In this document: in pieces, positions 12,181 through 62,188 of the stretch
Layout of the letters: each line of letters opens with the position of its first letter
How positions within the stretch are numbered: position 1 is the stretch's first letter
Assembly (NCBI GenBank): GCA_030649165.1
Contig: JAUSGG010000015.1
Coordinates: forward strand, 29,238 to 93,237
Source of the DNA: Armatimonadota bacterium
Lineage (GTDB): Bacteria; Armatimonadota; UBA5829; JAUSEB01
Reading direction: 5' to 3'
DNA: 64,000 nucleotides
Program-made: the position numbers and the translations under genes
Notes under the pieces: model-generated
Databases searched by the model: none
The model's input: the letters and a program-made list of their open reading frames with translations, nothing else
What the model was told of the DNA's origin: nothing

Positions 12181-13767
12181 TCACCCGTCACCCATGCGGC
12201 TTTGTCGCGTCCAGATCAGCCCGGCAAATGACAAGACGACGCACAGGTACGCGAACCAGTCGCCGAGACGCGTATAGGGCGCTTGCCTCGTCAACGGTAC
12301 TATGTCGCGGTAGATGATCTTCTTCCTGAAAATCCCTGCCGAGTCGAGGACCCGGCCCCACGGATCGATCACGCTGGATATGCCCGTGGCCGCGCAGCGC
12401 GCCAGGAACCGCCGGTTCTCGACCGCCCGCAGCACGGACATAGCGTGGTGCTGCTCGGCAGCGGCCGTGCGTTTGAACCAGGCGTCGTTCGTCATTACTA
12501 CTAACACGTTCGCGCCTCGCTTCGCGAGTTGGCGCGAGATTTGCGGGAATATCGACTCGAAACAGATCATCACGCCCAGGTTGCCGAAATCCGCCCGCAG
12601 CGGCAGATAACCGGGTCCGGGAGCATAGTCGAAGTCCCTTATCTTGTACCGCGCCAGGAACGGCAGCCACTTTCTGCCAAACACCACTTCGCCGAACGGA
12701 ACGAGGTGCGCCTTGTAGTACTTTCCCACAAGGTCTCCGTGAGGAGAAAACAGAAATGCCCCGTTATACTCCCTCATCGCGTCGCCGGACGGGCCGGGAA
12801 CGATGTCCGAAGCCCCTACAAGCAAGTAGACTCTTGCCGCGCTCGCCAGATAGCCCAGCAGCCGGCGCGGTCCGCCCGGGCGGGAGAACTGGTCGGGTAT
12901 GGCGGTCTCAGGCCAGATGACCAGATCCGGGCGACGCTTCAGGGTCTCGGATGTAATAGTCACGTATTCGGCAATGGTTCGCGTCCTGTGCTCGTCCCAG
13001 GTCTGCCGAGGACGGACCTCCTGGTCCACGTTGCCCTGTATGATGGCGACTCGGACCGGCTTCCCGCTCGCCCGCCCGGCGCACAGGGCGAACGCGCCCC
13101 AGATGATCGCCGCGCATATCGCCGCGGCCACAAGGCCGGCCTGCGCGAGGGCCGTCCGGCGCGACAGTAGCAATTCAGCCAATGCGACGTTCGCCGCCGC
13201 GATCAAAAATGCAAGGCCCCACGGCCCGGTCACGCTGACGACTTGAATAACAGGAAGGTAGTTGACCTGCGACTGCGCCAGATTGCCCCAAGTGAACCCG
13301 AGGAGTCCAAGCGATCTGAGCCACTCGAACGCCGTCCAGACGGACGGAACGACAAGCAGCCTGAACCACGCCGAACGAGCGCGGAACGCCGGATACGCGA
13401 CTGCACAGAAGCCGACGAAAAACAAGGCCTGAAACAGAGCGAGCAGGACCCACGGCGCGTACCCGAAGATGGTTATCCAGTAGAGCAAGCCGCCGAAGAA
13501 AACCGCGCCCATCAAGAGCGTCGCGGCCAGACTTGTCCTGAAGGAGGATTTGCTGTACACGATGAAGATCGGCGCAAGCGCGACCCACGCAAGCGGCCAC
13601 AGGTTGAAGGGCGCAAATGCCGCTATCAACCCCCCGGCGGAAATCAAAGCCAGAAAGTAAGCAAGCGCGTTCACAACCAATACCCCAAAGGCGCTATAAT
13701 GTGTAGGGTTATAAGGGTCGCGAGGTTGTAGGTTTGTAGGTTTATGAGGTCTGTGAGGTTTAGACAC
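12181..13767 (-). CDS. lnt: Apolipoprotein N-acyltransferase
   Basis: N-terminal polytopic membrane domain plus a CN-hydrolase domain (VAIIQGN...WPETA...ICFESIFP). The N-terminus of the listed ORF overlaps the tandem octamer repeat, so the true start may be downstream. Confidence 0.75.
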   Translation of the reverse strand: MSKPHRPHKPTNLQPRDPYNPTHYSAFGVLVVNALAYFLALISAGGLIAAFAPFNLWPLAWVALAPIFIVYSKSSFRTSLAATLLMGAVFFGGLLYWITIFGYAPWVLLALFQALFFVGFCAVAYPAFRARSAWFRLLVVPSVWTAFEWLRSLGLLGFTWGNLAQSQVNYLPVIQVVSVTGPWGLAFLIAAANVALAELLLSRRTALAQAGLVAAAICAAIIWGAFALCAGRASGKPVRVAIIQGNVDQEVRPRQTWDEHRTRTIAEYVTITSETLKRRPDLVIWPETAIPDQFSRPGGPRRLLGYLASAARVYLLVGASDIVPGPSGDAMREYNGAFLFSPHGDLVGKYYKAHLVPFGEVVFGRKWLPFLARYKIRDFDYAPGPGYLPLRADFGNLGVMICFESIFPQISRQLAKRGANVLVVMTNDAWFKRTAAAEQHHAMSVLRAVENRRFLARCAATGISSVIDPWGRVLDSAGIFRKKIIYRDIVPLTRQAPYTRLGDWFAYLCVVLSFAGLIWTRQSRMGDG

Positions 13768-13821
13768 TCCTCAATACCCCGAAAACCTTAGAACCCTGAA
13801 ACCCTAGAACCCTGTAACCCT
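13711..13821. repeat. Inverted pair of tandem octamer arrays (TAGGGTTA/GTAGGTTT ... AACCCTGA/AACCCTAG) in a divergent intergenic region
   Basis: Read directly from sequence. The G-rich array on the left faces a C-rich array on the right. Confidence 0.7.
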
Positions 13822-14499
13822 ATGAGTCGTTTTCCCACAATAATGCTTGCCGTGTTCGCCGCGCTCGCGCTCACTGGATGCGCCCGCGCCCCCGCGGGCG
13901 GACCCGGCGCCGCGCGCAGACTGGTCATCGAGATGCGCGTCGCGGGCGTCATCAATCCCGACTATTTCTATTACGTCGCAATCGACAATGATGGTGACCC
14001 GAACGACGGTCCCCAAGCGGTCGTCGGCCCGCCCTGGGGCAACGGCTGGGGCGCCGGGGCGATTACCCATTACGTTCAGTTCGACACCAGCCTTCCGCAG
14101 GGCGGTTACGGCCTATTCAGGATACCCGATGCCGGTCTTTTGGGCAAGGTTTACCTCGGCCCGCCTGTCAACTTCATCACCCCCGGCCCCAGCGGCAACA
14201 CGCTCAGGTTCACGCTGGATCTGGACGATCTCGTAATCCCTCCGCAGACGGATGGAAACCAGATACAGACGCTTGAGATAAACTTCATTGCCACGGACGT
14301 GGTCCCCACCGACCCATCCTTCGTGGGCCCGCGGCAATGGGACGCGCTCGGGGACGGGAGCAGCAACGCGTTCCTGCGACTGAACGTTACCCCGGGGCAG
14401 TTCATTTCTAATGGCACGGAAGGACTGGAGCCGGACGGCGACGTCTTCCACCCCGATTTGGACATAGTGGACTGGTCGATAGAAGTGCAGCAACTATAA
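13822..14499 (+). CDS. Lipoprotein (signal peptide with lipobox LTGC), function unknown
   Basis: MSRFPTIMLAVFAALALTGC. Confidence 0.7.
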   Translation: MSRFPTIMLAVFAALALTGCARAPAGGPGAARRLVIEMRVAGVINPDYFYYVAIDNDGDPNDGPQAVVGPPWGNGWGAGAITHYVQFDTSLPQGGYGLFRIPDAGLLGKVYLGPPVNFITPGPSGNTLRFTLDLDDLVIPPQTDGNQIQTLEINFIATDVVPTDPSFVGPRQWDALGDGSSNAFLRLNVTPGQFISNGTEGLEPDGDVFHPDLDIVDWSIEVQQL

Positions 14500-23189: not shown

Positions 23190-24568
23190 CCTCAAGAGAC
23201 CCAAATCACGCCCAAGACGAACTCGTAACCGCTATTACCGAAGGCAGCGTGTGGCATGTGGTCTGGAGGCTTTCCTGGCCGACAATGATCAGTCTCTTCC
23301 TTTCCACCGCGCAGTTGTGGATCAACACCATCTTTGTCGGCAAGCTCGGTAAGGAAGCGATTGCCGCCGTTGGATTGGGCGGCAACGCGCTCATGGTCAT
23401 ATTCTCTCTGACAATCGGCATAACCGCGGGCGGAACCGCGTTGGTGGCGAGGTTCACCGGGGCAAGATCGTACGATGAAGCCGCGGATGCCGCGAAACAA
23501 GCCATTATCCTCTCATTATTGTCATCGATCGTGGTCACAATGGTCTGCATGCCGCTTGCAAAACCCGTCATTGAATGGATGGGCGCCAGAGGTATCGTGG
23601 CCGATCTCGGCGCCGTGTATACGGTCCTCGGCGTTATTTCGACCACACCCTATTTCCTGTGGCTCGTGCTGAGCGCGGTCTTCCGCGGAATTGGCGATAT
23701 GCGCACGCCTTTGTATATCGCCGGCGTCGTAATAGCGCTCAACATTGTAGGGGACTGGGTACTGATTTTTGGCAAAGGCCCGTTTCCAAAGCTAGGCGTA
23801 CCGGGCGCGGCGTGGGCATTGATGATCTCACGAGCGGCAGGCACAGCCCTAAGCTTCTGGTGGCTGCTCCGATCGACTATGCGAAGATCGCTCGCCCCGC
23901 CGTGGACGCCGCGTCTTGACTGGTTCCTGCGTATTGCCAGAATCGGCGTCCCGGCGGTTATCCAAAGCTTGCTGTTCAGCCTCGCGTTCGTAGGGTTCTT
24001 CTGGGCTCTTGGCAAACTGCCAAACGTCGTGGACGCGCAGGCGGCCCTCGTCATCGGCCTCCGGGCTGAAGCCATCGCGTTCATGCCGGGATTTGCTTTT
24101 ATGACCGCGGCAACCTCTCTCGTAGGACAGAATCTCGGCGCGCAGCGGCTCGACAGGGCAGAGCGGGGCGCTTGGATCTGCGCCTGGCAAAGCCTTGCGG
24201 TGATGTCGGTGTTTACAGTTGTATACTTTGTCTTGGCGGAACCCTTCTCCCGCTTATTCACGAACGATCCGCAGGTGATAGCGCTGTCGGTTTCCTACCT
24301 AAGGATAAACGCGATCTCCGAGCCCTTCCTGGGATTCGCCATGGTCTTCACCGGGGCAATGCAGGGGGCGGGAGATACCAGAGACCCCACCATTGTCGCA
24401 TTCCTGACACTGTGGATTATCCGCCTGCCCCTGACCTACATCGCCGCAATAGTCTTCCACGGCGGCGCGACAGCGGCCTGGATTATCATGTCCGGCACAA
24501 CGATCCTTCGCGGCATCATAATGATCGGCCTCTTCAAACTCGGCAAGTGGAAGACCGTCCAGGTCTGA
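23186..24568 (+). CDS. MATE family efflux transporter
   Basis: 12-TM protein with MATE-like N-terminal motifs. Confidence 0.8.
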   Translation: MTSRDPNHAQDELVTAITEGSVWHVVWRLSWPTMISLFLSTAQLWINTIFVGKLGKEAIAAVGLGGNALMVIFSLTIGITAGGTALVARFTGARSYDEAADAAKQAIILSLLSSIVVTMVCMPLAKPVIEWMGARGIVADLGAVYTVLGVISTTPYFLWLVLSAVFRGIGDMRTPLYIAGVVIALNIVGDWVLIFGKGPFPKLGVPGAAWALMISRAAGTALSFWWLLRSTMRRSLAPPWTPRLDWFLRIARIGVPAVIQSLLFSLAFVGFFWALGKLPNVVDAQAALVIGLRAEAIAFMPGFAFMTAATSLVGQNLGAQRLDRAERGAWICAWQSLAVMSVFTVVYFVLAEPFSRLFTNDPQVIALSVSYLRINAISEPFLGFAMVFTGAMQGAGDTRDPTIVAFLTLWIIRLPLTYIAAIVFHGGATAAWIIMSGTTILRGIIMIGLFKLGKWKTVQV

Positions 24569-24660
24569 CCATCACAACCCTCACAAACCTACAAACCTAC
24601 AACCCTCACAAACCTACGAACCTACGAACCTACAAACCTATGACCCTATGAACCTATGGC
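24569..24660. repeat. Tandem octamer array (AAACCTAC/GAACCTAC/GACCCTAT, about 10 units)
   Basis: Read directly from sequence. Confidence 0.75.
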
Positions 24661-26585: not shown

Positions 26586-26690
26586 GGTTGTGAGGTTTAT
26601 AAGGTTTATAAGGTTTATGAGGTTCCAGGGGGTCAAGGCTCCAGGGGCTTCGTTGGTTGGGCAAACCCTATAACCCTATAACCTTATAAC
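26586..26690. repeat. Inverted pair of tandem octamer arrays (GGTTTATA x3 ... AACCCTATAACCCTATAACC) in a convergent intergenic region
   Basis: Read directly from sequence. Confidence 0.7.
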
Positions 26691-34543: not shown

Positions 34544-34756
34544 GGGTCTCCTTTCGCGGACTCCATCCGGGTCCGCATTGGTGAATCTTCTGAAATTCTA
34601 TGAACTGGCTCAGCAAAAGTCAAGGGAGGGGGCCGGAAGCGAGTGGAATGTGAGGAGTCGGGGGAGTCAGGAGAGTCGAGGGAGTAGACCGCGTCCCAGA
34701 ACGAACCCCTGAACCCCTAAGCCCCTATGACCCTGGAACCCTAACAACCTACAACC

Positions 34757-35734
34757 CTACCTCGGCACTTCCACCGCGTTCAGCAGCCTGCCGATCACCT
34801 TGTCCGGCGTCGCGCCCTCGATCTCCGCCTCCGGCCTCAAGATAAGCCTGTGCCTGAGAACCGGCGCGGCGAGCGATTTGACATCGTCCGGGATCACGTA
34901 ATCCCTTCCATTTATCGCGGCCAGGGCCTTCGATGTCAACAGCAGAGCAACAGACGCCCGCGGGCTCGCCCCGAGAATAAGGCTGCGGTCTTTGCGGGTC
35001 CTGCGCGTAATCTCCGCGATGTAGCGCACGATGGCTTCGTCAACACGGACAGCGGCCACCACCTTCCTGCACTGATTCAGGTCTTCCGCGCCGGCAATGC
35101 GCGCTATCCCGGCTTCCTCCAACCTCAGCGCCCGAAAGCCCCGGTTGTAGTTGTCCAGAATCCGTCGCTCTTCCTCCTCCGACGGGTAGTCCATTACGAT
35201 CTTCAGAAGAAACCGGTCCAACTGCGCCTCGGGAAGAGGATACGTCCCCTCGTATTCCACCGGATTCTGCGTCGCCAAAACGATGAAAAGGCCCGGCAGC
35301 GGATGCGGCTTTCCATCAACGGTGACGCGGCGTTCTTCCATTGCTTCCAGCAGCGCGGCCTGGGTCTTGGGCGGAGTCCGGTTGATCTCGTCGGCCAGAA
35401 GCACATTCGTGAAGACAGGACCGTGCCTGAAGCTGAATTCCCCTGAAGTCGAACTGTAAACGTTCGTTCCGATAACGTCGGACGGCATAAGGTCCGGCGT
35501 GAACTGTATCCTTTTGAAGTCCGCTCCTATCGTGAATGCGAGCGCCCGGACCAGGAGAGTCTTGGCGATGCCGGGAACGCCCTCTAGCAGAACGTGACCG
35601 TCCGCCAGCAGCGAGACCAAGGCCTGCTCCAACACTGCTTCCTGTCCAACGACGACCTTGGCGACCTCGCGCCTGATGTCCTCGACTATCCTGCAGGTCA
35701 GGCCCGCATCGGCCGGTTCCGAATTATCGGTCAA
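34757..35734 (-). CDS. MoxR-family AAA+ ATPase
   Basis: Walker A LLEGVPGIAKT. MoxR-type layout. Confidence 0.85.
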   Translation of the reverse strand: MTDNSEPADAGLTCRIVEDIRREVAKVVVGQEAVLEQALVSLLADGHVLLEGVPGIAKTLLVRALAFTIGADFKRIQFTPDLMPSDVIGTNVYSSTSGEFSFRHGPVFTNVLLADEINRTPPKTQAALLEAMEERRVTVDGKPHPLPGLFIVLATQNPVEYEGTYPLPEAQLDRFLLKIVMDYPSEEEERRILDNYNRGFRALRLEEAGIARIAGAEDLNQCRKVVAAVRVDEAIVRYIAEITRRTRKDRSLILGASPRASVALLLTSKALAAINGRDYVIPDDVKSLAAPVLRHRLILRPEAEIEGATPDKVIGRLLNAVEVPR

Positions 35735-38430: not shown

Positions 38431-38520
38431 GCCGGGGGCTGGCTTCGGCTTCAAAGAACAAGCCGAAGCATCCGGCCTACGAACCTTAGAACCCTGGAAC
38501 CCTCATAAACCTCATAACCC

Positions 38521-39141
38521 TCACAACCCTTCCCCCTTCAGCTCCGCTATTGCCGCCATCACCCTTCTACCTATCTCTTCCAGCGCATCACGGTCGGAGC
38601 CGCGGTCGTACAGATCATCTATATGCACGGGTTTTCCAATTCTGACGCGAACTTTGGCAAAACGGAGAAACGGAGAGTGAGGAGGGAGGAGCTTATCACT
38701 GCCCAGGAGGGCCACGGGGATAATCGGCGCGCGCGATTTCATCGCTATCATGCTGATACCTAGCTCGGCCTTCAGCAGCGTGCCGCCCGGGCTGCGCGTG
38801 CCCTCGGGGAATATGCAGACGACTTCGCCGGTCTCCAGCAGGCTTATCGCCTGTTTCAACGCCGCACGGTCCGCGGTCGCCTGCTTCACCGGAAAGGCCC
38901 CGACAGCGCGTATCAGCGCCCCGAATATCGGAACCGCGAACAGTTCCGATTTGGCCATAAACCTTACCTGACGCCGCGACGCCGCTCCTACGACAGGCGG
39001 GTCCGCATAGCTGATGTGGTTGGGCGCAAGTACCACTCCGCCTGTGCGCGGAATATTACAGCGGCCGATCACTCGCCAACGGCCGAAGACCGGAAGTATT
39101 ATTGCTCTCAGCAGAAACCACGCTACGTAGTAGAGCAGCAA
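38521..39141 (-). CDS. plsC: 1-acyl-sn-glycerol-3-phosphate acyltransferase
   Basis: NHISYAD and FPEGTR motifs. Confidence 0.85.
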   Translation of the reverse strand: MLLYYVAWFLLRAIILPVFGRWRVIGRCNIPRTGGVVLAPNHISYADPPVVGAASRRQVRFMAKSELFAVPIFGALIRAVGAFPVKQATADRAALKQAISLLETGEVVCIFPEGTRSPGGTLLKAELGISMIAMKSRAPIIPVALLGSDKLLPPHSPFLRFAKVRVRIGKPVHIDDLYDRGSDRDALEEIGRRVMAAIAELKGEGL

Positions 39142-41718: not shown

Positions 41719-41809
41719 GCCAATACCTCGGTCAACGATACTATCCCTATTATCCCTGCTATCCTTGCTATCCCTCCAGGTACCCTACCTGGAGGACGCG
41801 CGCAAACGA

Positions 41810-42931: not shown

Positions 42932-43173
42932 GAACTCAGGAGAGATGACAAACAGATCGGGTCGTATCTGTGGTACGTGGGGGTTCAGGGAAGAACGTGG
43001 ATGAACACGGATAAACACGGATGGGGAAGGGAATTGTCAGTTGTTAGTTGTTGGTTGTTCAGGACTAACACATCGGAGCGTGTAACTGATACATGGGCAA
43101 ATCGTGCGGAAATAGTCAGAAACCTCATAAGAATCATCCGATTTCCTGCATCTCATGCTATAGAGGAACTCAA

Positions 43174-44607
43174 ATGTGCAGTTCACAAGTTGCGGACGCT
43201 GAGCTCGTGGCGGCTGCACGAGCCGGAGACGCGGCCGGCTTCGGCGAACTGGTCAGACGCTACCAGGGGCTGATCTATGGTCTCGCTTATCACCAGGTCG
43301 GCAACTTCGCGGACGCTCAGGACATCGCGCAGAATGCCTTCGTGAAAGCATTCAGACGACTGGACCAACTGGAGCAGCCGGAGTGTTTTAGCGCCTGGCT
43401 GAAAACCATTGCCGCCAACGAGTGCAAGACGTGGATACGCGCGAGCAGGAGCGCCATTCCGCTGGAGGATGCGGAGACGCGGCCTTCTTACGCATCCTTG
43501 TCGGCCAACAAATGGAGACAGCACGAACGACAGACAGAGGTCCGACGGGCTGTGGCGTCCTTGCCGGAACGAAGCCGGCTGATGGTCGATCTGCACTATC
43601 TGTCGGGACTATCGCACCGCGAGATCGGCGAGTTCCTCGGCGTGCGCGCGAACGCGGTCGCGCAGCATCTATACCGGGCTCGTCAGCAGCTCAAACAGAT
43701 GCTGATGCCGGAGATCGAGGAGGGTTATGCTATGAATAAGCTGCCGGAAAGCTTTACCGAGGACGTGTTGGGTAGGATAACGCTCTACCCGGTGGAGGAA
43801 GGCAAGTTCATGGTCTGCGACGGCGATGGAGACGCGCGCGGGATGACGATGGCTGTCGAAGGTGTTGGTCCCGAGAAGTCCTACATTACACTATGGATGA
43901 GGCAAGACGACCTCGACGACGTCGTCTTGGGAACGCTGCCGCGGAGAACCGCCGAAAAGGCAAAAGGACGCGCGCTCAACAGCGCTCTTGAGTTGTTGAA
44001 CGCACTTGGCATTGAACTGAAGCAGGTAGAGATTCGTCTGTCCGGGGACAGAAAATGTCGCGCCGCTGTGCGACTGGCGCAGGACAACACCGAGACGACC
44101 GTGGATATGCGGCCGAGCGACGCTCTCGGCCTGGCTGTTCGTGTGAAAGCGCCGGTTTATGTAGAGGAGCCGGTCGTTCGGCGCGGAAACGTGGGAGAGG
44201 ATGACCTACCCACGCCGGATTCAGACATGGACCCGGACACCCACAACGAGGAATATGAGAAGTTTCGGTGGCACGACCGCTTGGTGGACAAGGTTTTCGA
44301 GATGGGCGTTTCCACTGAGGACTGCATAGACACGGTTCGTTTCCGCAAGGACGAGGCCAACGGCGTTCTCAGAGTTTGGCTGGAGGCTGTTCCCGAGAAA
44401 GAAGCAACGTTCGATCTCATGGAATACGGACCGGGGGTGGAGATGATCTTCGACCTCGGCGGACGCAGAGGCGCGACCGGACGCTTGTGCGAAGGCGACC
44501 CCGTTCGGGGTTTCCGCAGGCGTTACAAACTTCTCTACTCGCTGCTGGGTGGTGACGCGCGGGTCCGCGTCATTCTGGAGGCGCCGGACGCGCAAGAGGG
44601 GGAATGA
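43174..44607 (+). CDS. ECF-type sigma-70 factor fused to a C-terminal BFN/DUF151-like domain
   Basis: Region 2 (LVRRYQGLIYGLAYHQVGNFADAQDIAQNAF) and region 4 (LSGLSHREIGEFLGVRANAVAQHLYRARQQL). C-terminal VDMRPSDALGLAVRVKAPVYV matches the BFN signature. RBS GAGGA before the ATG at 43174. Confidence 0.7.
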   Translation: MCSSQVADAELVAAARAGDAAGFGELVRRYQGLIYGLAYHQVGNFADAQDIAQNAFVKAFRRLDQLEQPECFSAWLKTIAANECKTWIRASRSAIPLEDAETRPSYASLSANKWRQHERQTEVRRAVASLPERSRLMVDLHYLSGLSHREIGEFLGVRANAVAQHLYRARQQLKQMLMPEIEEGYAMNKLPESFTEDVLGRITLYPVEEGKFMVCDGDGDARGMTMAVEGVGPEKSYITLWMRQDDLDDVVLGTLPRRTAEKAKGRALNSALELLNALGIELKQVEIRLSGDRKCRAAVRLAQDNTETTVDMRPSDALGLAVRVKAPVYVEEPVVRRGNVGEDDLPTPDSDMDPDTHNEEYEKFRWHDRLVDKVFEMGVSTEDCIDTVRFRKDEANGVLRVWLEAVPEKEATFDLMEYGPGVEMIFDLGGRRGATGRLCEGDPVRGFRRRYKLLYSLLGGDARVRVILEAPDAQEGE

Positions 44608-47089: not shown

Positions 47090-48811
47090 CTACTTCGGAA
47101 ACACTACCGTCGCCTTCGTCCCCCCGTTGTCCTCCAACGTGAACGACCCGTTCAGATTATCGTGGACGAGGTTCTCAACTATCTGCAGGCCCATCCCACG
47201 AGCTTTTCGAAAATCGAAGTCCGGTTCGAGCGGCTCGCCGTCGTTCGAGATAACCATTTTCAGCTCGTCCTGCTCCTCACCCAGCTCGACCGTGATCTTC
47301 CCGCCGCTGATCGACTTGAACCCGTGCTCCACCGCATTTTGGATCAGCTCGTTCAGGATCAGCGCGACCGACGTAGCTTTGCCCGACGGCAGAAAAACGT
47401 CCACCCCGCGCACCGACATCGTGATGTGCTTGTCCGGCGGCACGAGCCCCTGGCTCGTAGCGGCGATGATATTCTCCGCGATCTTCTTTATGCTGACGTT
47501 GTCCATATTTTCCTGCGACAGCATCTCGTGGACCGCCGCGATGCTGAGTATTCGAGTGATGCTCTCATTCAACACCTGCTCTACGGACTCGAACTTGCCG
47601 TAACGGATTTGCAGTCGTAGAAGGCTGGCAATCGTCTGCAGGCTGTTCTTGACCCGGTGGTGCATCTCTTGAATGATCGCCGATCTGACCATCAGCTTGG
47701 CGTTCTCAATCGCTATTGCCGCGTGGCTTGCCAGCGCGCTGAGGAGCTGCAAATCCTCGTCCGTAAAGACGTGAGGCCTGGCCGTGTAACAGTTCAAAAC
47801 GCCGATCGTCTTGTTCTTGACCGACAGCGGCATGCAGACGAGCGAGCAGAGTCCTTCCTGTTTCGCGATATCGGGGAACCTGTATCCCGGGGTTTTGCGA
47901 ACGTCGAGCACTGTCAGAGGCTTGCCTTCCAATACCGCGCGGCCCGCGAGGCTCTCGCCGAGCTTGAGGTTCGGCTTCTTCACATAAGCCTTGCTCTGGC
48001 TCTGGGTCGCCTTGATAACCAACTCGCCGCGATCTTCGTCCAGCAGCATAACAGAGCAGATCTTGAAGCTCATGCTGTCCGCCGTCATCCCGACTATAAG
48101 CTGCAGAACTTCGTCGAGGTACAAGTCGGAGGTGATGGTCTTGCTGATCTCGGATAAAGTGCTGAAACGCGAAGCCTGCGCCTGAAGCCGTTTGTACTGG
48201 ACCGAACTCTCAACTGCCCCGCCGACCATGCTCGCAATGCTGTTCAGCAGGCGTATCTGGCCCTCTCGGTATTCGTGTGGTGGGTTCGTGCGAACGTTGA
48301 TCACACCTACCAACTCCGTTTTGCCTGGGAGCGGCACGGAAAGCATCGACTGGTAGTTGTCCTGCTGGAATCCCGGAACCGGCTTGAACCTGGCGTCGAG
48401 GAAAGCGTTGCGGTTTAGAGCCACGTACTTACGTTCCTTGGCGACCCACCCGGTTATCCCCTCGCCCACTTTCAGGCGAATCTTGCCGATAACGCCTCTC
48501 GCCGGCCGGCTGGCGGCGCGAAGGACGAGCTCTCTCTTGGACTCGTTGAGGATGTAGATCAGGCAGAGGTCGGTGCCGGTCACCTTCACGACGATGTCGG
48601 CCGCCATCTTGAGCATTTCTTCGAGGTCGAGGGTTGATGCTATTGCCTGTCCCAGCAGCCGGATTGCTTCGGTTTCCACATCCTTGTCATGAAGAGCGCT
48701 CTCCAGGCGAGAGTTCCGCGCCCTGGCGTCATCCAGCGCCTTGCGAAGCTGCTGCAGCTCATCATCCGCCCCGGAATCGGAGCCGGACTTGGATATCACG
48801 TTTCTTCTCAT
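47090..48811 (-). CDS. Sensor histidine kinase with two GAF domains and a HisKA_2/HWE-type kinase core
   Basis: HHRVKNSLQ H-box. C-terminal HATPase region (ILNELIQNAVEHG). Confidence 0.8.
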   Translation of the reverse strand: MRRNVISKSGSDSGADDELQQLRKALDDARARNSRLESALHDKDVETEAIRLLGQAIASTLDLEEMLKMAADIVVKVTGTDLCLIYILNESKRELVLRAASRPARGVIGKIRLKVGEGITGWVAKERKYVALNRNAFLDARFKPVPGFQQDNYQSMLSVPLPGKTELVGVINVRTNPPHEYREGQIRLLNSIASMVGGAVESSVQYKRLQAQASRFSTLSEISKTITSDLYLDEVLQLIVGMTADSMSFKICSVMLLDEDRGELVIKATQSQSKAYVKKPNLKLGESLAGRAVLEGKPLTVLDVRKTPGYRFPDIAKQEGLCSLVCMPLSVKNKTIGVLNCYTARPHVFTDEDLQLLSALASHAAIAIENAKLMVRSAIIQEMHHRVKNSLQTIASLLRLQIRYGKFESVEQVLNESITRILSIAAVHEMLSQENMDNVSIKKIAENIIAATSQGLVPPDKHITMSVRGVDVFLPSGKATSVALILNELIQNAVEHGFKSISGGKITVELGEEQDELKMVISNDGEPLEPDFDFRKARGMGLQIVENLVHDNLNGSFTLEDNGGTKATVVFPK

Positions 48812-49383
48812 ACTTCGTGCGCGATCACAATGGCCTCGGCAATCTCCCGCATGGATTTCCTGGTATTCATGCTCTGCGCCTGGATTCTGCGGAAGGCCTC
48901 AGCCTCTTTCAAGCCGTACTGGTCCATCAGAATGCCTTTGGCGCGGTCGACTACCTTCCTGGTCTCAAGCTTCTCGGACAAATCCCCGGCCTGAGTTTCC
49001 ATCTCCTGGTATTCGAGATATCTCGCAATTGCGACCTCAATCGCAGGCGTCAGGTCCGCCTCCTTGAATGGCTTAACGAGATAGGCGAAAACGCCCGCTT
49101 CCTTGGCGCGATCTATCAGGTCTTTCTGGCTGTACGCGGTCAGGAGGATCACCGGCGATATCTTCTCCGCTGAGATGATCTTGGCCGCGTCGAGGCCATC
49201 CATAATGGGCATCTTGATGTCCATTACCACTACGTCCGGGCGAAGCGATCGAACGAGGTCCAGGGCCTTCTGGCCGTCAGCGGCTTCGCCCACGACGGCA
49301 TGCCCCATTTCCTCGATCATCTTCTTCAAGTCCAGCCGTATGATGGCTTCGTCATCCGCGACCACGATTCTCAGTTGATCCAT
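48808..49383 (-). CDS. Response regulator with a C-terminal ANTAR RNA-binding domain (AmiR/NasT-like)
   Basis: Receiver domain (VADDE...D...K) plus ANTAR motif (VDRAKGILM...EAFRRIQAQSMN). RBS GGAGG. Confidence 0.85.
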   Translation of the reverse strand: MDQLRIVVADDEAIIRLDLKKMIEEMGHAVVGEAADGQKALDLVRSLRPDVVVMDIKMPIMDGLDAAKIISAEKISPVILLTAYSQKDLIDRAKEAGVFAYLVKPFKEADLTPAIEVAIARYLEYQEMETQAGDLSEKLETRKVVDRAKGILMDQYGLKEAEAFRRIQAQSMNTRKSMREIAEAIVIAHEV

Positions 49384-49473
49384 CCGTTCGCCTCCAATAA
49401 CCACTCCCTTGCTGTCCACCCATTGTAATCTATGCTATAATCCGTTGTCAAAGTTCCGGGCGAGGTTGCGTCA

Positions 49474-50280: not shown

Positions 50281-50443
50281 CCCCCTCCCCTTTCAGGGGA
50301 GGGCTGGGGTGGGGTCAAATCTGCCGACAATATCGGATTCTCACGAGGAAATAAGGAAAGGAAGGAAAGCAAACAATGGCGCTTATTGCTTTCTTTTCCC
50401 CTTTTCCTACTCTTTCCAGTCTTCCTCGTCAAAGCCTTTTCAG

Positions 50444-51205
50444 ATGAACATCCAAATCTGCGCGGAAACACGAATCGGCTCTCGTACCGCAAATGAGGAC
50501 AGCTATCTCATCATTCAGGGGCCCGATCTGCCTGATGGAGTCCTGGCCGTCCTGGCTGTCGCCGACGGCATCGGCGGAATGGGCAATGGGCATGTTGCCA
50601 GTTCCACTGCGCTGACCACCTTCGCCGAAACGTTTCGCAGGTTCGCTGCTGCGCACAAGCGGCGCGACCCTCCCATTGCTGACTGGCTCGCATTCTGTTT
50701 CCACAAGGCCAACTCGCGCGTTCTACGTATGGGACTCGCTCTCCCTGAGTTGAAGGGAATGGGAACAGCCTGCACAGCCGCGGCCATCACGCGCTCTCAC
50801 GTTCACGTCTGTCACGTAGGTGATGGCCGTGGATATCTGTGGAGAGAATACGCTCTGCGCCAGCTCACGGATGACGAATGGTACCGCGACTTGAGAAAGC
50901 CTCGACCCCCCGACAAGGCTGTCCACAATGCCCGGCCAGGCCGGCGGCCGGGCGTGACGCTTGTGAATCAGGCAATCGGCTGGCAGCCAATGATAAACCC
51001 GTCCAAAATCGTCGAGCCGCTGCGACCCGGCGACGGAATTCTCCTCTGCACTGACGGCCTCACCGACAGCCTGCCAATTGAAGAGATCGAGCGCCTGCTC
51101 CGCTCCACCCCCGGCGCCGGCGACCTTTGCCGCGATCTCGCCGACCAGGCAGCCAAGACGCCAAACTCCGACAACGTCACACTCATTTACGCCCAACTGC
51201 CTTGA
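50444..51205 (+). CDS. PP2C-family Ser/Thr protein phosphatase
   Basis: VADGIGGMGNGHVAS and the C-terminal DG(L)TD motif. Confidence 0.8.
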   Translation: MNIQICAETRIGSRTANEDSYLIIQGPDLPDGVLAVLAVADGIGGMGNGHVASSTALTTFAETFRRFAAAHKRRDPPIADWLAFCFHKANSRVLRMGLALPELKGMGTACTAAAITRSHVHVCHVGDGRGYLWREYALRQLTDDEWYRDLRKPRPPDKAVHNARPGRRPGVTLVNQAIGWQPMINPSKIVEPLRPGDGILLCTDGLTDSLPIEEIERLLRSTPGAGDLCRDLADQAAKTPNSDNVTLIYAQLP

Positions 51206-51402: not shown

Positions 51403-54400
51403 ATGCGCCGATTCAGTCCATGTTTCTCCCTGGTTCTTGTCGTCTGGCTGTTCCTGGCGATAGTCCCCGCGCTTGCTGACATCGGATTCGTGTACACCTG
51501 CGACCAGGTCCCCCACCTGGCTCCGTCGGCGTGGAACGTGTCTCCAAACGGCCCGTCAAACAGCGTCCATACGGAACAATGTGGAGGAAGCTGTAATGGC
51601 ATCACAAACAGCGTAGTTACGGACGGGGGATCCAACGTGTGGAAGGTGGTGGACGCGAACACATCCTACTGCGGAATCTGGAAAAACGCCAACCTGAGCG
51701 GCATGAATTTAGGCAGGGGCGTGACGATAGCTGCCAACATAAGGTGTGAGGAAAACTCATCAGACAGTTCCTTTACGCTTGGTATTAATAAGACGAATTC
51801 CGCTGTGCTGTTTCTCTGCGTCAGAACGGATGGCTGCCTTCTTATGGACAGAGAAGGCGTGGTAAAGAGTTCGTACTCATTTACGGCCGACACCACGGGC
51901 TACCACCGCTATTATCTGACCGCACAGAATCCTCCCGGGGTGGGCGACGACCAGTGTGTCTGGACTGTCTATCGAGACGGCCAGTCGGTGATGACCTATA
52001 CACCAGGTCTTCTAGCGAACTGGACAGCCAGCAACGCATTCTTCGCCGGGCACGGGGGACCGTATACGACGAATATTGGCTCCGGGACGGGAACGTGGTA
52101 TTTCGACTGGATCGCGTGCAGGACTGACGGAGCCTTCAGCCCAAGCCAGTGGGACCCCATGCTTCCGCCACCGGCTCCGACGGTCACGGCGCCGGCCAAC
52201 GGTTCCACGGTCATCATCCTCAACCCAACCATACAATGGACGAACACCTATTACGACAGCTATGAGGTCCACGTCACCACGACAAACAACCCCACCGGCG
52301 CCATCGCCTGGGACTCCGGCGTAGTGGTGAGCACAGCGAATTCCTGCACTCCGGCCAACCTGGCGAACGGGTCATATTACATATTCATCCGCCTGCGCGC
52401 CCCTGCGGGATGGGGACCCTGGAGCGCCGAAGGTTACAGGTTCACGGTTGATGCGCCTACCAGTCCGCCCGTCGCGCCCACTATGACTGCGCCTGTTCCC
52501 GGGTCAACTCTGAACACAAGAAACGTCGTGATTGGGTGGACGGGAGGCACGCGCGACGGCTACCAAGTCCACATAAATACCACCAATCTGCCGAACGACG
52601 CGGACGGATGGGACTCCGGCTCGGTAATGAACAAAGCCAATGACTGCCTTTCCGGAAGCCTTGCGAACGGCTCTTATTACGCTTTTGCCAGGTTGCGCAA
52701 TCTGGCCGGCTGGGGGGAATGGAGCACGGGCGTTAACTTCACAGTGGACGTTTCGTCAGTCCTGCCGGGGGCGCCCGTCGTGGTAACCCCGATGGACGGG
52801 TCGAACGTGGCGCTGCAGAAGCCCGTGGTTCGGTGGATCGGAGATGCGCACGACAAATACGAGGTCCATGTCAACACAACGAACACTCCTGCCGACACGG
52901 ACGCCTGGACCTCCGGCGAGGTATCCAGCGCCGATGACTGGTGCGACTCCGGTATCCTGACCAACGGAGCCTACCACGTCTTCGTCCGCGTGCATAACGA
53001 CGCGGGCTGGGGTCCATGGAGCGCCGGACGAGCCTTCACGGCGAACTTCACCGGCTCCGAGATGAAGAAGGGTTGGATCTTCCTTCGCGACGACCTGCCT
53101 TACCACCTGGAATTGCTCACTCACGCCCGTGAGTACCACGTGAACCATTTGCAGATATCCCACGACATAATGATGTACGCTTGGCAGCCGATCAATGATG
53201 TGGCAAAGCGCAGCAAGATCAACCAACTCATTGATACGGCTCACGCTAACGGCGTAAGCGAAGTAGTATTGTGGTCTCACGAGATAATGTACCGCGACTT
53301 GCCGCCGCAGTACAGAGTCGGCGGAAAGGTCAACCTGGACGATCCCGGCTTCTGGACGTGGATGGACTCAGAGTACGAAACACTGTTCACAGTGTGCCCG
53401 AACGCCGATGGACTCGTTTTCACGTTCAGCGAGTCCGATGTGGACTTCGACAACCGTTTCGAAACCATTCACACCGGCAAGACGCCCATAGACACGTACG
53501 CCAAGGCGATTGAGACCCTGTGGAACGTCTGCCACAGGCACAACAAATCCCTCTACATACGCACTTGGGGATCTGACAAGTGGATCCGCGACGGCCTCAT
53601 GCGCAACGATCCCGCCATCTGGCTCATGAATAAGGCCACCGGCGCCGCCGACTGGAACGTGATCCAGGAAGATTACGATATGGTCGGCACGGCTCCGGGG
53701 CATCCGGAGTTGATGGAATTCGACTTTACGGGCGAGTATTGGGGACTTACCTACACTCCGTGGGCCGGCATAGACTTCACGCGACACCTGTGGTCCGAGT
53801 TTGGCTTGCCGCGCGGGGTTGATGGCATGGCGGCAAGGATAGACAGAGACAACGGAAACGCTGTCCAAACTCCCAACAGGATCAATATGGCCGCGCTGGA
53901 TATTCTGGCTGATTCCCCGGACATCTCTTCCGATGATATCTACAGCTATTGGTCTAACCACTGGTTCGGCCCCTCGGGGGCGAAGATAGCGTCTTCGCTG
54001 AAGAGGACCTTCGACATCACGAACGCCTGCTACGGCCTGCCAACCGTCTACCCGTTCTCCTATTGGGTCGCTATCAACGACATCAAGTCATCCACGTTCG
54101 ACCTGAACTGCGTGGCCCCCAGCCTCAAAGCCGACACCAACTACCAGTCCGGCGTCACGGCCTACGACCTGTTCCACGGGCGAATGATGAACGCCGCGGC
54201 CAAATTGGGGATTGGCGTACCGACAACACTATTCGGCGACTTCACGCCCATTTACAGCAACGAGACGAGCCCGACGTGTACCGCGACGATCGTGGACGCG
54301 TCAACGGGACTGAACCCGTCCTCGTTCTACGTCGAGTACTCTACGGACGGCGGATCATCATGGACCCCCTACTCCAACATCACGGTCACGGCGGAGGGAT

Positions 54401-57159
54401 CGTCGACTAACCCTTACCACATAACAGCCAACTCCGTGCCTTTCGGGCAGGTTCGGGTCGCAAAGAACAAGCTGAGGTTTGGCGCCGCCAATCTGGCCGG
54501 CGGCGCAAACTCCCAGGTCTTCACCGTTCGAGGCTCGGACGTTGCCTACGCCACGCTCGGGACTGACGTGGAGACCGACGGGATCAATTACGCCCAGGGC
54601 GGAGACGGGGACACTACCCCGGCCACCATGGGAGGAAGATCCTGCCGCACACCCGCCACAACAGGCGACTCCAACTTCTATTTCCAGACAGATGAAGGCT
54701 TTGCTTTCGACAGATCGCCGCGAACAGTCTATCTTCAGGTGGACTACTACGGTTCGTCCGGCTCCATCGCGCCCTGGTACGACAGTATCTGGAGAAACGA
54801 CGAACCGCTTCCGCCGGTCTACCTGAGCGGAGGCACGACCTGGCGCACCGCGACATGGAAGCTCGACAGTGTGAACTTCGGACACAGGTTGAGCGGGTGG
54901 TTGGATTTTGCCCTTCGCGTTCCCGGCGGCTCCGGAACGGTTTTCATCAGCGACGTAAGGCTATCCTATTCGCCGCCTGCCGGAACGCTTGCTCAACCCG
55001 CGGGTCTCAGGACTTCGGCCCTCTCGCCGACCAGCGCCGGGCTTGTGTGGACCCCGGTGGCTGGCGCAACGACGTATCAGGTGTGCAGGGACGGCGTCTT
55101 CGTCGGGTGGTCGAACACCCCCAGCTTCACAGACTCAGGGCTTTCGCCAAATACGCAATACGCGTACACGGTGACTGCGTTCAACGCGTCGAATCACAGC
55201 TCGCCCGCAAGCAGGAACGCGTACATTACTGCTCTCGCCGCGCCGGTCTCCCCCACGACCATCACCTCCGACCCTCTTCCCGGGACTTGGCAGACTTCGG
55301 ATTCCATCAATTTCACGGCTGTCGGCGGGTTCGGCGCCGGGAAAGTGGCCTACTATCAATATGCCTGGGACCAATCCCCAAACCATGTCTGGACCGGAAA
55401 CGAACCGACTTGGCCGGCAACGACAGGCAACCCTCCGTCCGGCGCCGGTTGGGACGTGTGGCGAGCCACCTCTTCGCCAGTAAACCAGGCCCCTTGGCTC
55501 ATGTACGAAGGCTCAACCCAGCAGCGATGCATGTCTGAAGAGACTACGCTGGAGAACGGGATACCAACCTGGATCCTTAATGACCAGGGCCGCGTCTTCG
55601 GGACCAAGGGCAAGTTTGCCATTTGGCCGAACCTGCCCACTAACAGGGATACTGGTATGACCGTCGTCGGAAGAATCAGATGCGTGGACGAACCGTCGGG
55701 TTGGTATAACACCAGCACGAACTTCGGAATCAACCTGCTTGATTGCCCCGATATCGGCATCTCTATCAGGCCGGACTCTCTCCAATTGGGCGGAGACCAG
55801 TGGCAGCCTGCTGACAACGGTTACACCTACCACACTTACACCCTGACGTTGAAGAATGCCGGCCCGGGCAATAACAACACGGCTGTATACAGCCTGTACC
55901 GAGACGGGAGCTTTGTGTCGAGTATGGTCCAGGGGCCATCAGGACCCAGCGCTCGGTCAGGCCCGTTCTTCGGACATTGGAGGAGCGACGCCACCGGTGG
56001 ATGGGCTTGGCAGTGGATCGCATGGAATGCCACCGGGGCCTACGTTCCGTCGAACAGCGCGACGCTCACAACGACCGCTTCTCAGTACGGCAGTTATTAT
56101 CTCCACATCAGAGGCTTCAACTCAGATGGAGCGCCTGACGCGGCGGCCAACCTCGGCCCGTACTACTACTGGAACGGCTCCACTCCTGTCGACCCAACGG
56201 TTATCGACGATGGCGATTACACAACCGATGACGCTATTCACGCTAAGTGGAGCCCCGTGGCCCCGGACGGTGGAACAGCGATCTCATACGAGTACGGCAT
56301 AGGGACCGCCGCCGGTCTCGACAACATCGTTCCTTTCGCCGATATCGGCCCTTCGCTTGAAGTCATCAAAACAGGGCTTCATCTTGCTGAAGGAAGCACA
56401 TACTACGTGACCGTCAGAGCGATCGCCGGCGCCACCGCCTACAGCGGATCGAGCGACGGCATAATCGTTGCTCCCAAGCGGCAAAGGGTTGCCCATATCA
56501 AGAAGCTGGCGGACGACGATCCTGTGGCCCTCTACGGTAAGACTGTTACCGCCGTATTCCCGGATTACGCCTACATTCAGGACAAGAACGGGATGGGGAT
56601 CCGGGTGGTCACCGCAAGACCGATAGCGGAGGGCGATATCGTCGATCTTGCCGGCACAATCATCGGTTCAAAGGAAGAACGATGGATAGAGGCTGATTCC
56701 GTTTTCAAGAGGGGGGCCGAAACGCCTAAGCCGCACTCTCTGTCAACCGCCGGAATCGGCGGCTCCGAATACGGCGAACCCGGAACCGGCAAAGGCCAGC
56801 CGGCTACCAAGGCCTATCAGTGGTTTGTCGACAGACAGACAAAGAAAAGAGTCAGGTCTACGGTCGAGTTGGACGTTCCGGGGCTCAACACGATCGGCCT
56901 TCTAGTAACGACTTACGGTCGGGTGACTTCGGCCGCCGGGAATAGTTTCTACCTGGACGATGGCTCCGGACTGGACGAGTACTATGACACTAAGAGGGAC
57001 GGCCCGGCGGGGATCAAGGTCCGGTTGCCCGAAAACATCTCGGCGCCTGCGCCTGGGACCTTCCTCTCGGTCACGGGAATAACTTCCTGCTATAAGTCCA
57101 GGGGCCATCTCAATCGCCTCCTTCTCGTGCGCCGCCTGAGCGACTTGCAGACATTCTAG
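51403..57159 (+). CDS. Giant secreted multidomain protein (1918 aa): signal peptide, 2 LamG/ConA-like lectin domains, 3 tandem roughly 95-aa Ig/FN3-like repeats, putative glycosidase-like central domain, FN3 and CBM-like domains
   Basis: Internal repeats (YEVHVNTTN...WDSG...NGSYY...AGWGPWS, three copies). Duplicated NIRCEE...YRDGQSV...WYFDWIA module. FN3 segment LRTSALSPTSAGLVWTPV...YQV. Confidence 0.8.
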   Translation: MRRFSPCFSLVLVVWLFLAIVPALADIGFVYTCDQVPHLAPSAWNVSPNGPSNSVHTEQCGGSCNGITNSVVTDGGSNVWKVVDANTSYCGIWKNANLSGMNLGRGVTIAANIRCEENSSDSSFTLGINKTNSAVLFLCVRTDGCLLMDREGVVKSSYSFTADTTGYHRYYLTAQNPPGVGDDQCVWTVYRDGQSVMTYTPGLLANWTASNAFFAGHGGPYTTNIGSGTGTWYFDWIACRTDGAFSPSQWDPMLPPPAPTVTAPANGSTVIILNPTIQWTNTYYDSYEVHVTTTNNPTGAIAWDSGVVVSTANSCTPANLANGSYYIFIRLRAPAGWGPWSAEGYRFTVDAPTSPPVAPTMTAPVPGSTLNTRNVVIGWTGGTRDGYQVHINTTNLPNDADGWDSGSVMNKANDCLSGSLANGSYYAFARLRNLAGWGEWSTGVNFTVDVSSVLPGAPVVVTPMDGSNVALQKPVVRWIGDAHDKYEVHVNTTNTPADTDAWTSGEVSSADDWCDSGILTNGAYHVFVRVHNDAGWGPWSAGRAFTANFTGSEMKKGWIFLRDDLPYHLELLTHAREYHVNHLQISHDIMMYAWQPINDVAKRSKINQLIDTAHANGVSEVVLWSHEIMYRDLPPQYRVGGKVNLDDPGFWTWMDSEYETLFTVCPNADGLVFTFSESDVDFDNRFETIHTGKTPIDTYAKAIETLWNVCHRHNKSLYIRTWGSDKWIRDGLMRNDPAIWLMNKATGAADWNVIQEDYDMVGTAPGHPELMEFDFTGEYWGLTYTPWAGIDFTRHLWSEFGLPRGVDGMAARIDRDNGNAVQTPNRINMAALDILADSPDISSDDIYSYWSNHWFGPSGAKIASSLKRTFDITNACYGLPTVYPFSYWVAINDIKSSTFDLNCVAPSLKADTNYQSGVTAYDLFHGRMMNAAAKLGIGVPTTLFGDFTPIYSNETSPTCTATIVDASTGLNPSSFYVEYSTDGGSSWTPYSNITVTAEGSSTNPYHITANSVPFGQVRVAKNKLRFGAANLAGGANSQVFTVRGSDVAYATLGTDVETDGINYAQGGDGDTTPATMGGRSCRTPATTGDSNFYFQTDEGFAFDRSPRTVYLQVDYYGSSGSIAPWYDSIWRNDEPLPPVYLSGGTTWRTATWKLDSVNFGHRLSGWLDFALRVPGGSGTVFISDVRLSYSPPAGTLAQPAGLRTSALSPTSAGLVWTPVAGATTYQVCRDGVFVGWSNTPSFTDSGLSPNTQYAYTVTAFNASNHSSPASRNAYITALAAPVSPTTITSDPLPGTWQTSDSINFTAVGGFGAGKVAYYQYAWDQSPNHVWTGNEPTWPATTGNPPSGAGWDVWRATSSPVNQAPWLMYEGSTQQRCMSEETTLENGIPTWILNDQGRVFGTKGKFAIWPNLPTNRDTGMTVVGRIRCVDEPSGWYNTSTNFGINLLDCPDIGISIRPDSLQLGGDQWQPADNGYTYHTYTLTLKNAGPGNNNTAVYSLYRDGSFVSSMVQGPSGPSARSGPFFGHWRSDATGGWAWQWIAWNATGAYVPSNSATLTTTASQYGSYYLHIRGFNSDGAPDAAANLGPYYYWNGSTPVDPTVIDDGDYTTDDAIHAKWSPVAPDGGTAISYEYGIGTAAGLDNIVPFADIGPSLEVIKTGLHLAEGSTYYVTVRAIAGATAYSGSSDGIIVAPKRQRVAHIKKLADDDPVALYGKTVTAVFPDYAYIQDKNGMGIRVVTARPIAEGDIVDLAGTIIGSKEERWIEADSVFKRGAETPKPHSLSTAGIGGSEYGEPGTGKGQPATKAYQWFVDRQTKKRVRSTVELDVPGLNTIGLLVTTYGRVTSAAGNSFYLDDGSGLDEYYDTKRDGPAGIKVRLPENISAPAPGTFLSVTGITSCYKSRGHLNRLLLVRRLSDLQTF

Positions 57160-62137: not shown

Positions 62138-62188
62138 TCGTTCGTTGACAGTTGTCGGTTGTCGGTTGTCAGTTCTCAGTTGTCGGAC

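Follow-up and report, generated by a model that had tools for sequence, protein, structure and literature searches.

A predicted extracytoplasmic function sigma factor with a degenerate BFN/DUF151-like C-terminal extension in an Armatimonadota bacterium

The window analysed in the current study, a stretch of 64,000 nucleotides from an Armatimonadota bacterium (GenBank assembly GCA_030649165.1, contig JAUSGG010000015.1), carries on its forward strand a gene whose product is predicted to be a sigma factor of the extracytoplasmic function (ECF) type, fused to a long C-terminal extension. The first part of this extension possesses the fold of the BFN/DUF151 domain without two of the three signature motifs of that domain, including the Thr-His of the putative catalytic (or cleft) triad, and the second part appears to resemble in structure the N2 domain, a PAS-like domain, of PilB/GspE-type ATPases. 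The full architecture is conserved across about 30 sequence clusters. The relevant features, in coordinates of the window and with amino acid (aa) positions of the protein, are the following.

43093..44607, plus strand: open reading frame (ORF) of the ORF list, containing the sigma gene, with an alternative ATG at 43093
43127..43152, plus strand: conserved bipartite promoter-like motif ATAAGAAT-N13-GCATC (TAAGAAT-N13-GCATC)
43163..43167, plus strand: GAGGA ribosome-binding site, read from the sequence, 6 nt before ATG 43174
43174..44607, plus strand: coding sequence of the ECF sigma factor with its BFN-like and N2-like C-terminal extension, 477 aa plus stop
43249..43449, plus strand: Sigma-70 region 2 (aa 26-92), PF04542 at E=1.9e-15, profile positions 1-69 of 71
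43537..43698, plus strand: Sigma-70 region 4 (aa 122-175), PF08281 at E=5.5e-14 and PF04545 at E=1.3e-07
43708..43791, plus strand: conserved 28-aa connector (aa 179-206) with EEGYAMNKLPESFTEDVLGRITLYP, leading from sigma4 to the BFN fold
43792..44208, plus strand: BFN/DUF151-like domain (aa ~207-345), complete fold
43963..43989, plus strand: degenerate cleft motif KGRALNSAL (aa 264-272), replacing the canonical xxRPxTHDL
44110..44124, plus strand: retained RPSDA motif (aa 313-317), in which D316 corresponds to Asp115 of TM0160
44185..44229, plus strand: acidic inter-domain linker GNVGEDDLPTPDSDM (aa 338-352), including GNVGEDD
44230..44583, plus strand: C-terminal alpha/beta domain (aa ~353-470) of ~115 aa, without a sequence family

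The gene and its sigma core

Concerning the start of the gene, ATG 43174 is more plausible than ATG 43093, since an identical protein of 477 aa residues (P0001) is deposited at NCBI as 'MAG: DUF151 domain-containing protein [Armatimonadota bacterium]', where MAG denotes a metagenome-assembled genome, since homologs use the equivalent start position in the alignment, since GAGGA precedes this codon and since the conserved bipartite motif lies downstream of ATG 43093. In the leaders of the homologs an AGAGGAA ribosome-binding block is likewise kept 3' of the bipartite motif.

On sequence grounds the protein can be assigned to the ECF (group 4) sigma-70 factors, in that regions 2 and 4 are complete while regions 1.1 and 3 are absent; Pfam returned no match to Sigma70_r3 or r1 even at E<=10. 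The Sigma70_r4_2 (PF08281) match covers aa 122-173 (profile positions 3-54 of 54), about 25 aa residues precede region 2 and about 30 separate regions 2 and 4. An N-terminal, ECF-type sigma-70 region 2 and region 4 had been proposed in the original prediction, which was made from the DNA letters without database searches, and this assignment is borne out by Pfam as well as by the NCBIfam model TIGR02937 (sigma70-ECF), which was matched at 100.4 bits against a cutoff of 42.9. None of the specific NCBIfam ECF models among those listed reached its cutoff, the best being PRK05602 (97 against 208) and SigW (93 against 209). No affiliation with phages emerged from PHROGs, where matches were confined to the generic sigma part (aa 5-179), nor any with anti-phage defence from PADLOC, where the only match was weak and at chance level (E=0.005).

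The fused extension

The connector that follows region 4 displays a mean column identity of 79%, which equals the level in sigma2 and sigma4, and contains eleven invariant residues (E182, E183, Y185, M187, N188, L190, F194, V198, L199, L204 and P206). In the full-length AlphaFold2 (AF2) model it is unstructured, with predicted local distance difference test (pLDDT) values of 33-45. Its LPxxFxxxVL-type motif is common to canonical ECF-BFN fusions, which are described below, and to P0277. As regards a built-in anti-sigma domain, no match to zf-HC2, RskA or another anti-sigma family was obtained from Pfam at E<=10, and the window protein contains no HxxxCxxC or CxxC motif. The segment LPESFTEDVL may be comparable to helix 4 of RsiW-type anti-sigma domains.

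The presence of a C-terminal BFN (DUF151) domain, as proposed originally, was confirmed by its fold and by a Pfam domain search, in which PF02577 (BFN_dom) was matched over aa 272-338 at E=4.1e-12 and 46.4 bits, above the gathering score of 27, so that profile searches do support BFN homology. This match spans profile positions 43-107 of 112 only and begins at L272, just past the expected RPxTHD, while the TM0160-type fold extends over the whole BFN domain. When the protein was aligned by MAFFT with eight stand-alone, canonical BFN proteins, RP-x-T-H-D-L fell opposite R266-A-L-N269-S270-A271-L272, and Thr-His occurs at the cleft position in 0 of 18 close homologs, which present RALDSAL, RAFESAL and other variants; replacement of the catalytic THDL motif by RALNSAL had indeed been noticed at the outset. 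A distant member, P0025, reads RAMHHLL and thereby has a His at the cleft position. The second signature, IW(I/V)GxxEAxAI, aligns with LWMRQDDLDDVV and is lost, whereas the third, DxRPSDAxALAxR, is kept as DMRPSDALGLAVR. Within DMRPSDA (aa 311-317), residues R313, S315, D316 and A317 are invariant and P314 is nearly invariant in the 18 close homologs, while in distant family members RPSDA has decayed to KASEA, RANDA or PASAA.

The putative triad of TM0160 is given as Thr57, His58 and Asp115 in PMC7249048, which cites Spraggon et al. Asp115 was placed at the Asp of RPSDA by the tag offset in a phmmer alignment to TM0160; together with the alignment to canonical BFN proteins, this placement indicates that the Thr-His of the triad is lost and its Asp (D316) kept. 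TM0160 of Thermotoga (PDB 1VJL, 1SJ5) and Cor/Rv1829 are stand-alone, dimeric proteins of ~160 aa with RPxTHDL and GxxEA. Unlike these, the BFN domain of the window protein sits inside a sigma factor, is devoid of both motifs and displays 19% identity to TM0160.

The original prediction had placed a BFN fold within the C-terminal ~280 aa. The extension is real and measures ~290 aa, but only ~140 aa of it are BFN, the last ~115 aa being a separate domain. The acidic linker between the two has a mean column identity of 79%, and some canonical BFN proteins also possess an acidic, EDD-containing stretch after the BFN domain. The C-terminal domain, for which pLDDT is mostly 86-97, yielded no Pfam match at E<=10 and no sequence match in the PDB with a 16-sequence profile; its possible structural counterpart is the N2 domain of the ATPases of type II secretion systems and type IV pili (GspE/EpsE, PilB/PilF, BfpD). 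The idea that it is an internal duplicate of the BFN domain was rejected (hhalign probability 0.3%). An AF2 model of the extension alone (pLDDT 85, predicted template modelling score (pTM) 0.74) predicts that the BFN-like domain and the C-terminal domain make up a single rigid unit. No hydrophobic segment of the protein is compatible with a membrane helix, the maximum Kyte-Doolittle mean over 19 residues being 0.94.

Cys84 (43423-43425, in the N-E-C motif of sigma region 2.4) and Cys295 (44056-44058, in the BFN-like domain) are the sole cysteines conserved in most of the family, and P0025 contains only their equivalents. The sigma2 cysteine is also present in most of the canonical ECF-BFN fusions read, which have an aromatic residue at position 295. 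A redox-active disulfide between the two was considered and is weakened by Gly84 in P0005 and P0011, both close relatives, and by the lack of Cys295 in the distant P0033 and P0050; because there are exceptions at both cysteines, such a pair appears unlikely.

Relatives, leader region and genomic context

A search with the extension retrieved 20 clusters of sigma plus BFN architecture (369-481 aa, 47-63% identity) and two fragments. P0019 (369 aa) and P0020 (390 aa) are truncated, and both of the close clusters named at NCBI are Armatimonadota MAG proteins. About ten more distant clusters (457-476 aa, 41-26% full-length identity) were found by a profile search of the full library; these keep the connector, the BFN-like domain and the C-terminal domain, and the members with the full architecture are P0025, P0027, P0030, P0033, P0036, P0037, P0040, P0042 and P0050. 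The family is rare: a single locus was found across 185,579 species representatives of GTDB, and nine loci in the metagenome set of JGI. P0295 and P0296, which were considered as sigma-only paralogs, are both frameshifted copies of the window-protein family.

ECF sigma factors fused to an intact BFN domain also exist. All ten of the long BFN matches that were picked are ECF sigmas fused to a full-length canonical BFN domain (E=1e-27 to 1e-48), some with two BFN domains, TPR repeats or Big_2, and RPxT(H/Y)DL is kept in all eight of the canonical fusions whose sequences were read. A profile built from eight of these fusions gave 170 clusters at E<=1e-30; Sigma70_r2/r4 together with PF02577 is present in almost all of the 120 listed of these 170, which amounts to >100 ECF-BFN clusters, and proteins from MAGs of Roseiflexaceae, Ktedonobacteraceae and Solirubrobacteraceae are included. 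The sigma-BFN fusion is confirmed but it is not unique: it belongs to one diverged branch within a large collection of uncharacterised ECF-BFN fusions.

Like the window protein, the canonical fusions (for example P0158, P0147, P0057 and P0046) consist of sigma2, sigma4, an LPxxFxxxV(L/I/M)-type connector and BFN; they possess the closest sigma cores outside the window-protein family, and in a few, P0158 and P0057 among them, the C-terminal domain shows a comparable G-K-x-Y ... beta-hairpin pattern. Unlike the window protein, they match the full PF02577 profile, and the sequences read keep RPxT(H/Y)DL and IWIGxxEA. What follows distally differs from fusion to fusion and may be a second BFN, TPR, ankyrin, Clp_N, Big_2 or a receiver domain. 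When the core alone (aa 1-185) was used as query, fusions with canonical BFN scored 110-144 bits and the best ordinary ECFs retrieved database-wide scored <=113 bits, a comparison limited by the word-index search. This affinity agrees with a published rule, by which ECFs that share an extension type also group together in their core sequences (PMC7826278), and it suggests an ancestral ECF-BFN fusion, in which the cleft would have degenerated later in the window-protein branch.

Among the distal modules of canonical fusions are also Clp_N (PF02861), a LON substrate-binding domain, ankyrin, and a receiver combined with a Rho RNA-binding domain (module-bearing fusions are P0226, P0236, P0242, P0269, P0272, P0183, P0184, P0199 and P0256). 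The Clp_N fusions echo the trapping by ClpC1 that has been reported for plant DUF151-UVR proteins and hint at a link between BFN domains and Clp-type proteostasis.

Nineteen groups of the ECF classification 2.0 have fused C-terminal extensions, which in its main text are SnoaL-like, TPR, Cys-rich, DUF1835 or multi-transmembrane (PMC7826278). The nearest fused-extension ECFs are ECF41/56/294/295/205 (SnoaL-like), ECF42 (TPR), ECF238/287/288 (Cys-rich) and ECF264 (DUF1835). In common with ECF41/ECF42-type groups, the window protein combines an intact sigma2-sigma4 core with a conserved C-terminal extension of >50 aa, whose type follows the phylogeny of the core, and no co-encoded anti-sigma factor (PMC7826278, PMC8999054); unlike them, its extension is BFN/DUF151 plus N2-like, none of the extension domains of those groups was detected in it, and it is longer than the extensions of ECF41 or ECF42. 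The terms DUF151, DNase and PF02577 are absent from the ECF 2.0 text and preprint supplements, for one supplement as far as the available part extends, and two further ECF reviews make no mention of a BFN extension. In the literature searched, no paper was found that combines 'bifunctional nuclease' and 'ECF sigma'. A known ECF extension class, which the original prediction had named as the finding that would speak against it, was not encountered in the ECF 2.0 main text or, by keyword, in the supplements, one of them in part, and judging by sequence the extension appears to fit no ECF group described there or in the listed NCBIfam models. The protein is already deposited and named by its domain, and fused extensions as such are familiar among ECFs; the novelty lies in recognising in it a sigma factor whose extension class has not been described, together with a subfamily of that class in which the cleft has degenerated.

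The bipartite motif upstream of the gene follows the family consensus [AG]TAA[GT]A[AT][TC]-N13-[GT]C[AG]TC with fixed spacing and is found exactly once, on the plus strand just upstream of the sigma gene, in 11/11 independent close-family loci, including that of one 43%-identity homolog; a pattern of this degeneracy would, by our estimate, turn up about once in a million positions. When the window and all related loci were scanned with a position weight matrix (PWM), the true sites scored 28-43 and the next best 14.9. The tetranucleotide CGTC is a typical -10 element of ECF promoters. The second block of the motif resembles it and reads TCGTC in one locus, and a canonical ECF-BFN locus carries GAACC-N17-CGTC upstream. 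The motif is a candidate -35/-10 of an ECF-type, probably autoregulated promoter of the sigma gene. A sigma-70-type promoter was rejected as an alternative, as the consensus scan gave one site only, on the minus strand and facing the aminotransferase gene.

A different promoter had been suggested originally, namely a pair of upstream tandem repeats. These repeats exist: Tandem Repeats Finder (TRF) reports the GAACACGGAT repeat at 42999-43023 (period 10 x2.5, score 43) and a GTTGTTN repeat at 43034-43059 (period 7 x3.7, score 38). Both scores fall below the usual threshold, the homologous loci inspected show neither of the two ahead of the gene, and the decamer is not over-represented (17 matches against 12.5 expected). 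The two are also among 46 comparable micro-repeat rows in the window, mostly intergenic arrays of 7-9 bp. Their role as an autoregulatory promoter was consequently rejected, the conserved element being that at 43127..43152, and they look like members of a genome-wide intergenic micro-repeat habit. Short arrays of 7-9-bp units are found, among others, at 13722-13822, 24568-24658, 26593-26690, 34654-34760, 38476-38530, 41741-41775 and 62144-62186. In many of them the unit is similar to AACCCT or AAACCT, or to the complement AGGTTT, and some arrays form pairs of opposite orientation (GAGGTTTGT x4.8 beside AAACCCTAGAACCCTG x2.5; AGGTTTATA x3.6 beside AACCCTAT x3.4).

In two homologous loci (L009 at ~1270-1340 and L010 at ~2125-2200), an upstream ORF of ~21-22 aa beginning MRVSQ lies between the motif and the sigma ORF; its stop codon in L009 shares bases with the start of the sigma ORF (TAATG). 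The window has the same MxxSQ start joined without interruption to the coding sequence of the sigma factor. The upstream ORF could be a leader peptide or a means of translational coupling, or an insertion.

The G+C content of the window is ~59% throughout, and the neighbours of the sigma gene are ordinary chromosomal genes, namely those for prephenate dehydrogenase, DAHP synthase, a divergent class I/II aminotransferase, a xylose-isomerase-like TIM-barrel protein and a URO-D-like protein. Some 2.5 kb downstream, on the minus strand (47090-49419), lie genes for a tandem-GAF HWE/HisKA_2 histidine kinase and then a receiver-ANTAR (RNA-binding antiterminator) response regulator, followed by a PP2C phosphatase gene at 50309-51205; there is no evidence tying either the pair or the phosphatase to the sigma factor. 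A 1918-aa ORF on the plus strand (51403-57159) has weak fn3 and Rha78A-type Ig domain matches only and probably encodes a large surface or glycan-related protein.

No adjacent anti-sigma gene was found in any locus examined. A conserved gene neighbourhood was rejected, as neighbourhoods differ between loci. In one subclade (L003 198-524, L006 4606-7845, L007 533-7916) the sigma gene directly follows an Amidase_3 gene, the last of a Mu-like cluster of phage structural genes (Mu gpT capsid, and in L007 also Mu portal). NLPC_P60 and LPG_synthase_C genes lie downstream in L003 and L006, and in L006 and L007 an XPB-type helicase and DUF790 (Bax1-type) pair lies between or after these genes. The window locus has no Amidase_3, Mu-like, NLPC_P60, LPG_synthase_C, XPB or DUF790 neighbours. 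Related contigs bear additional ECF sigma genes in the vicinity: a 397-aa sigma with an unidentified extension of ~200 aa is encoded at L002 3238-4431, and an ECF paralog with a very similar N-terminus lies ~1.6 kb upstream of the BFN-type gene at L015 ~3800-4400.

Regulation in cis and the alternatives

Based on this analysis, we propose, with a probability of roughly 55%, that the protein is an autoregulated one-component ECF sigma factor, soluble and cytoplasmic, which is controlled in cis by its built-in extension. The sigma gene would be transcribed from the upstream motif by its own product, a positive autoregulation as in most ECFs, and the extension would take the place of an anti-sigma factor, as in the 'one-component' groups ECF41, ECF42, ECF56 and ECF238 (PMC8999054). 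The BFN-like/N2-like module may sense a cytoplasmic ligand or bind a protein partner, possibly as a dimer like BFN proteins, and the connector would transmit this signal by gating the access of sigma2/sigma4 to core RNA polymerase and to the promoter. The BFN fold would in that case be a non-enzymatic scaffold or sensor and not a nuclease. A regulatory, non-catalytic use of the extension, either in cis or through DNA/RNA binding, had already been suggested in the original prediction. A non-enzymatic role is supported by Cor/Rv1829 of M. tuberculosis, a DUF151 dimer without detectable DNase or RNase activity (PMC3870250).

Several observations weigh against this proposal. The full-length AF2 model, for which the alignment contained only 18 sequences, has a pTM of 0.45 and predicts no contact between the extension and sigma2 or sigma4; given this score and the unstructured connector, no docked state is predicted, and a docked sigma-extension conformation was rejected for want of a confident arrangement. 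Neither a second motif site nor a regulon member was found by PWM in the 64 kb window and ~150 kb of related loci, and the motif was not found at the same spacing upstream of the distant P0030 homolog (L019). The two blocks of ECF promoters are usually 16-17 nt apart, and the GAAT-like and CATC-like blocks are separated by a shorter 13-14 nt. Finally, the close family holds strictly to the RPSDA loop, and the cleft may therefore still have some function, such as the binding of a ligand or of nucleic acid.

This last point leads to a first alternative, which we consider improbable though worth weighing: the BFN-like domain, tethered to sigma4, would bind nucleic acid without cleaving it, whether upstream DNA, single-stranded promoter DNA or nascent RNA, and would thereby extend promoter recognition or couple transcription to a DNA or RNA signal. 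The domain family owes its name to DNase/RNase activity measured in plant OmBBD and AtBBD (PMC7249048), the RPSDA loop, whose Asp equates to TM0160 Asp115, is invariant in the close family, and two homologous loci have an XPB helicase gene and a DUF790/Bax1-type gene immediately downstream in the same orientation. This neighbourhood is, however, limited to those 2 of about 12 loci, two of the three signature motifs have gone, and in distant members RPSDA decays too. The net charge is acidic in every module of the extension (-5, -7 and -6) and in canonical BFN domains; that of the extension argues weakly against generic nucleic-acid binding. Moreover, Cor, the only bacterial BFN protein tested, is without nuclease activity, and its authors put the activity of the plant proteins down to possible contaminants or the UVR part (PMC3870250).

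An alternative of similarly low standing is that the extension serves mainly as a handle for oligomerisation or turnover, whereby dimerisation would sequester the sigma factor or the module would hand it to a Clp-type protease, its activity then depending on stability and not on the sensing of a ligand. TM0160 and Cor do dimerise via the DUF151 domain (PMC7249048, PMC3870250), ClpC1 substrate traps show a strong enrichment of plant DUF151-UVR proteins (PMC8889267), and several canonical ECF-BFN fusions contain a Clp_N (PF02861) or LON substrate-binding domain after the BFN domain. Against this, the inter-monomer cleft of TM0160, to which one chain contributes Thr57 and His58 and the other Asp115, is only partly kept in the window protein, and neither a UVR nor a Clp_N module is present in the subfamily to which the latter belongs.

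An active nuclease fused to a sigma factor, for instance a promoter-targeted one, is very improbable. The Pfam family name and the retained Asp316 are all that speak for it, while the Thr-His of the triad has become Asn-Ser in the window protein and Asp-Ser, Glu-Ser or other pairs in the 18 close homologs, the GxxEA motif is lost too, and activity is doubtful even for canonical bacterial BFN proteins (PMC3870250). That an assembly or frameshift artefact joined the sigma gene to a neighbouring BFN gene can practically be dismissed, because, although single frameshifted or truncated copies are seen in metagenome assemblies (P0295, P0296 and P0019), the continuous architecture of ~447-481 aa recurs in 18 close clusters, which were drawn from assemblies of JGI, ENA, Logan and NCBI that are independent of each other, and the sigma-extension junction segment is highly conserved.

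Beyond control of the window protein in cis, we tentatively advance a broader idea, which we hold to be less probable than that control itself, namely that BFN/DUF151 is not a nuclease but the regulatory signature module of a large, unclassified group of one-component ECFs. The proposed ECF-BFN group would be hosted by bacteria whose MAGs are named Chloroflexota (Roseiflexaceae and Ktedonobacteraceae), Solirubrobacteraceae and Armatimonadota. In this group the BFN domain, situated immediately past sigma4 and behind the conserved LPxxFxxxVL connector, would link the activity of the sigma factor to distal domains of varying type that serve in sensing or interaction, and in the window-protein branch the fold and the connector would be under selection while the 'catalytic' cleft residues drift freely.

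ECF sigma factors have been described as a major class of bacterial signal transduction, and those with fused extensions constitute compact single-protein switches that are useful as orthogonal regulators in synthetic biology. As the BFN extension falls outside the current ECF classification and is found in >100 clusters, it marks an unexplored regulatory group. The role of DUF151/BFN domains is contested, plant proteins having been reported as nucleases and Cor, which is needed for carbon-monoxide resistance and virulence in M. tuberculosis, being without nuclease activity (PMC3870250). The retention of the fold inside a transcription factor, with loss of the putative catalytic residues, represents a natural experiment that points to a non-enzymatic function, and the fusion to a sigma factor provides an easy readout, in the form of transcription from a defined promoter, for what the BFN domain senses. 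If the broader idea holds true, the ancestral function of BFN in ECF-BFN fusions would be regulatory, through protein or ligand binding, and this would open a route to the function of DUF151 proteins that stand alone, of which Cor of M. tuberculosis is an example.

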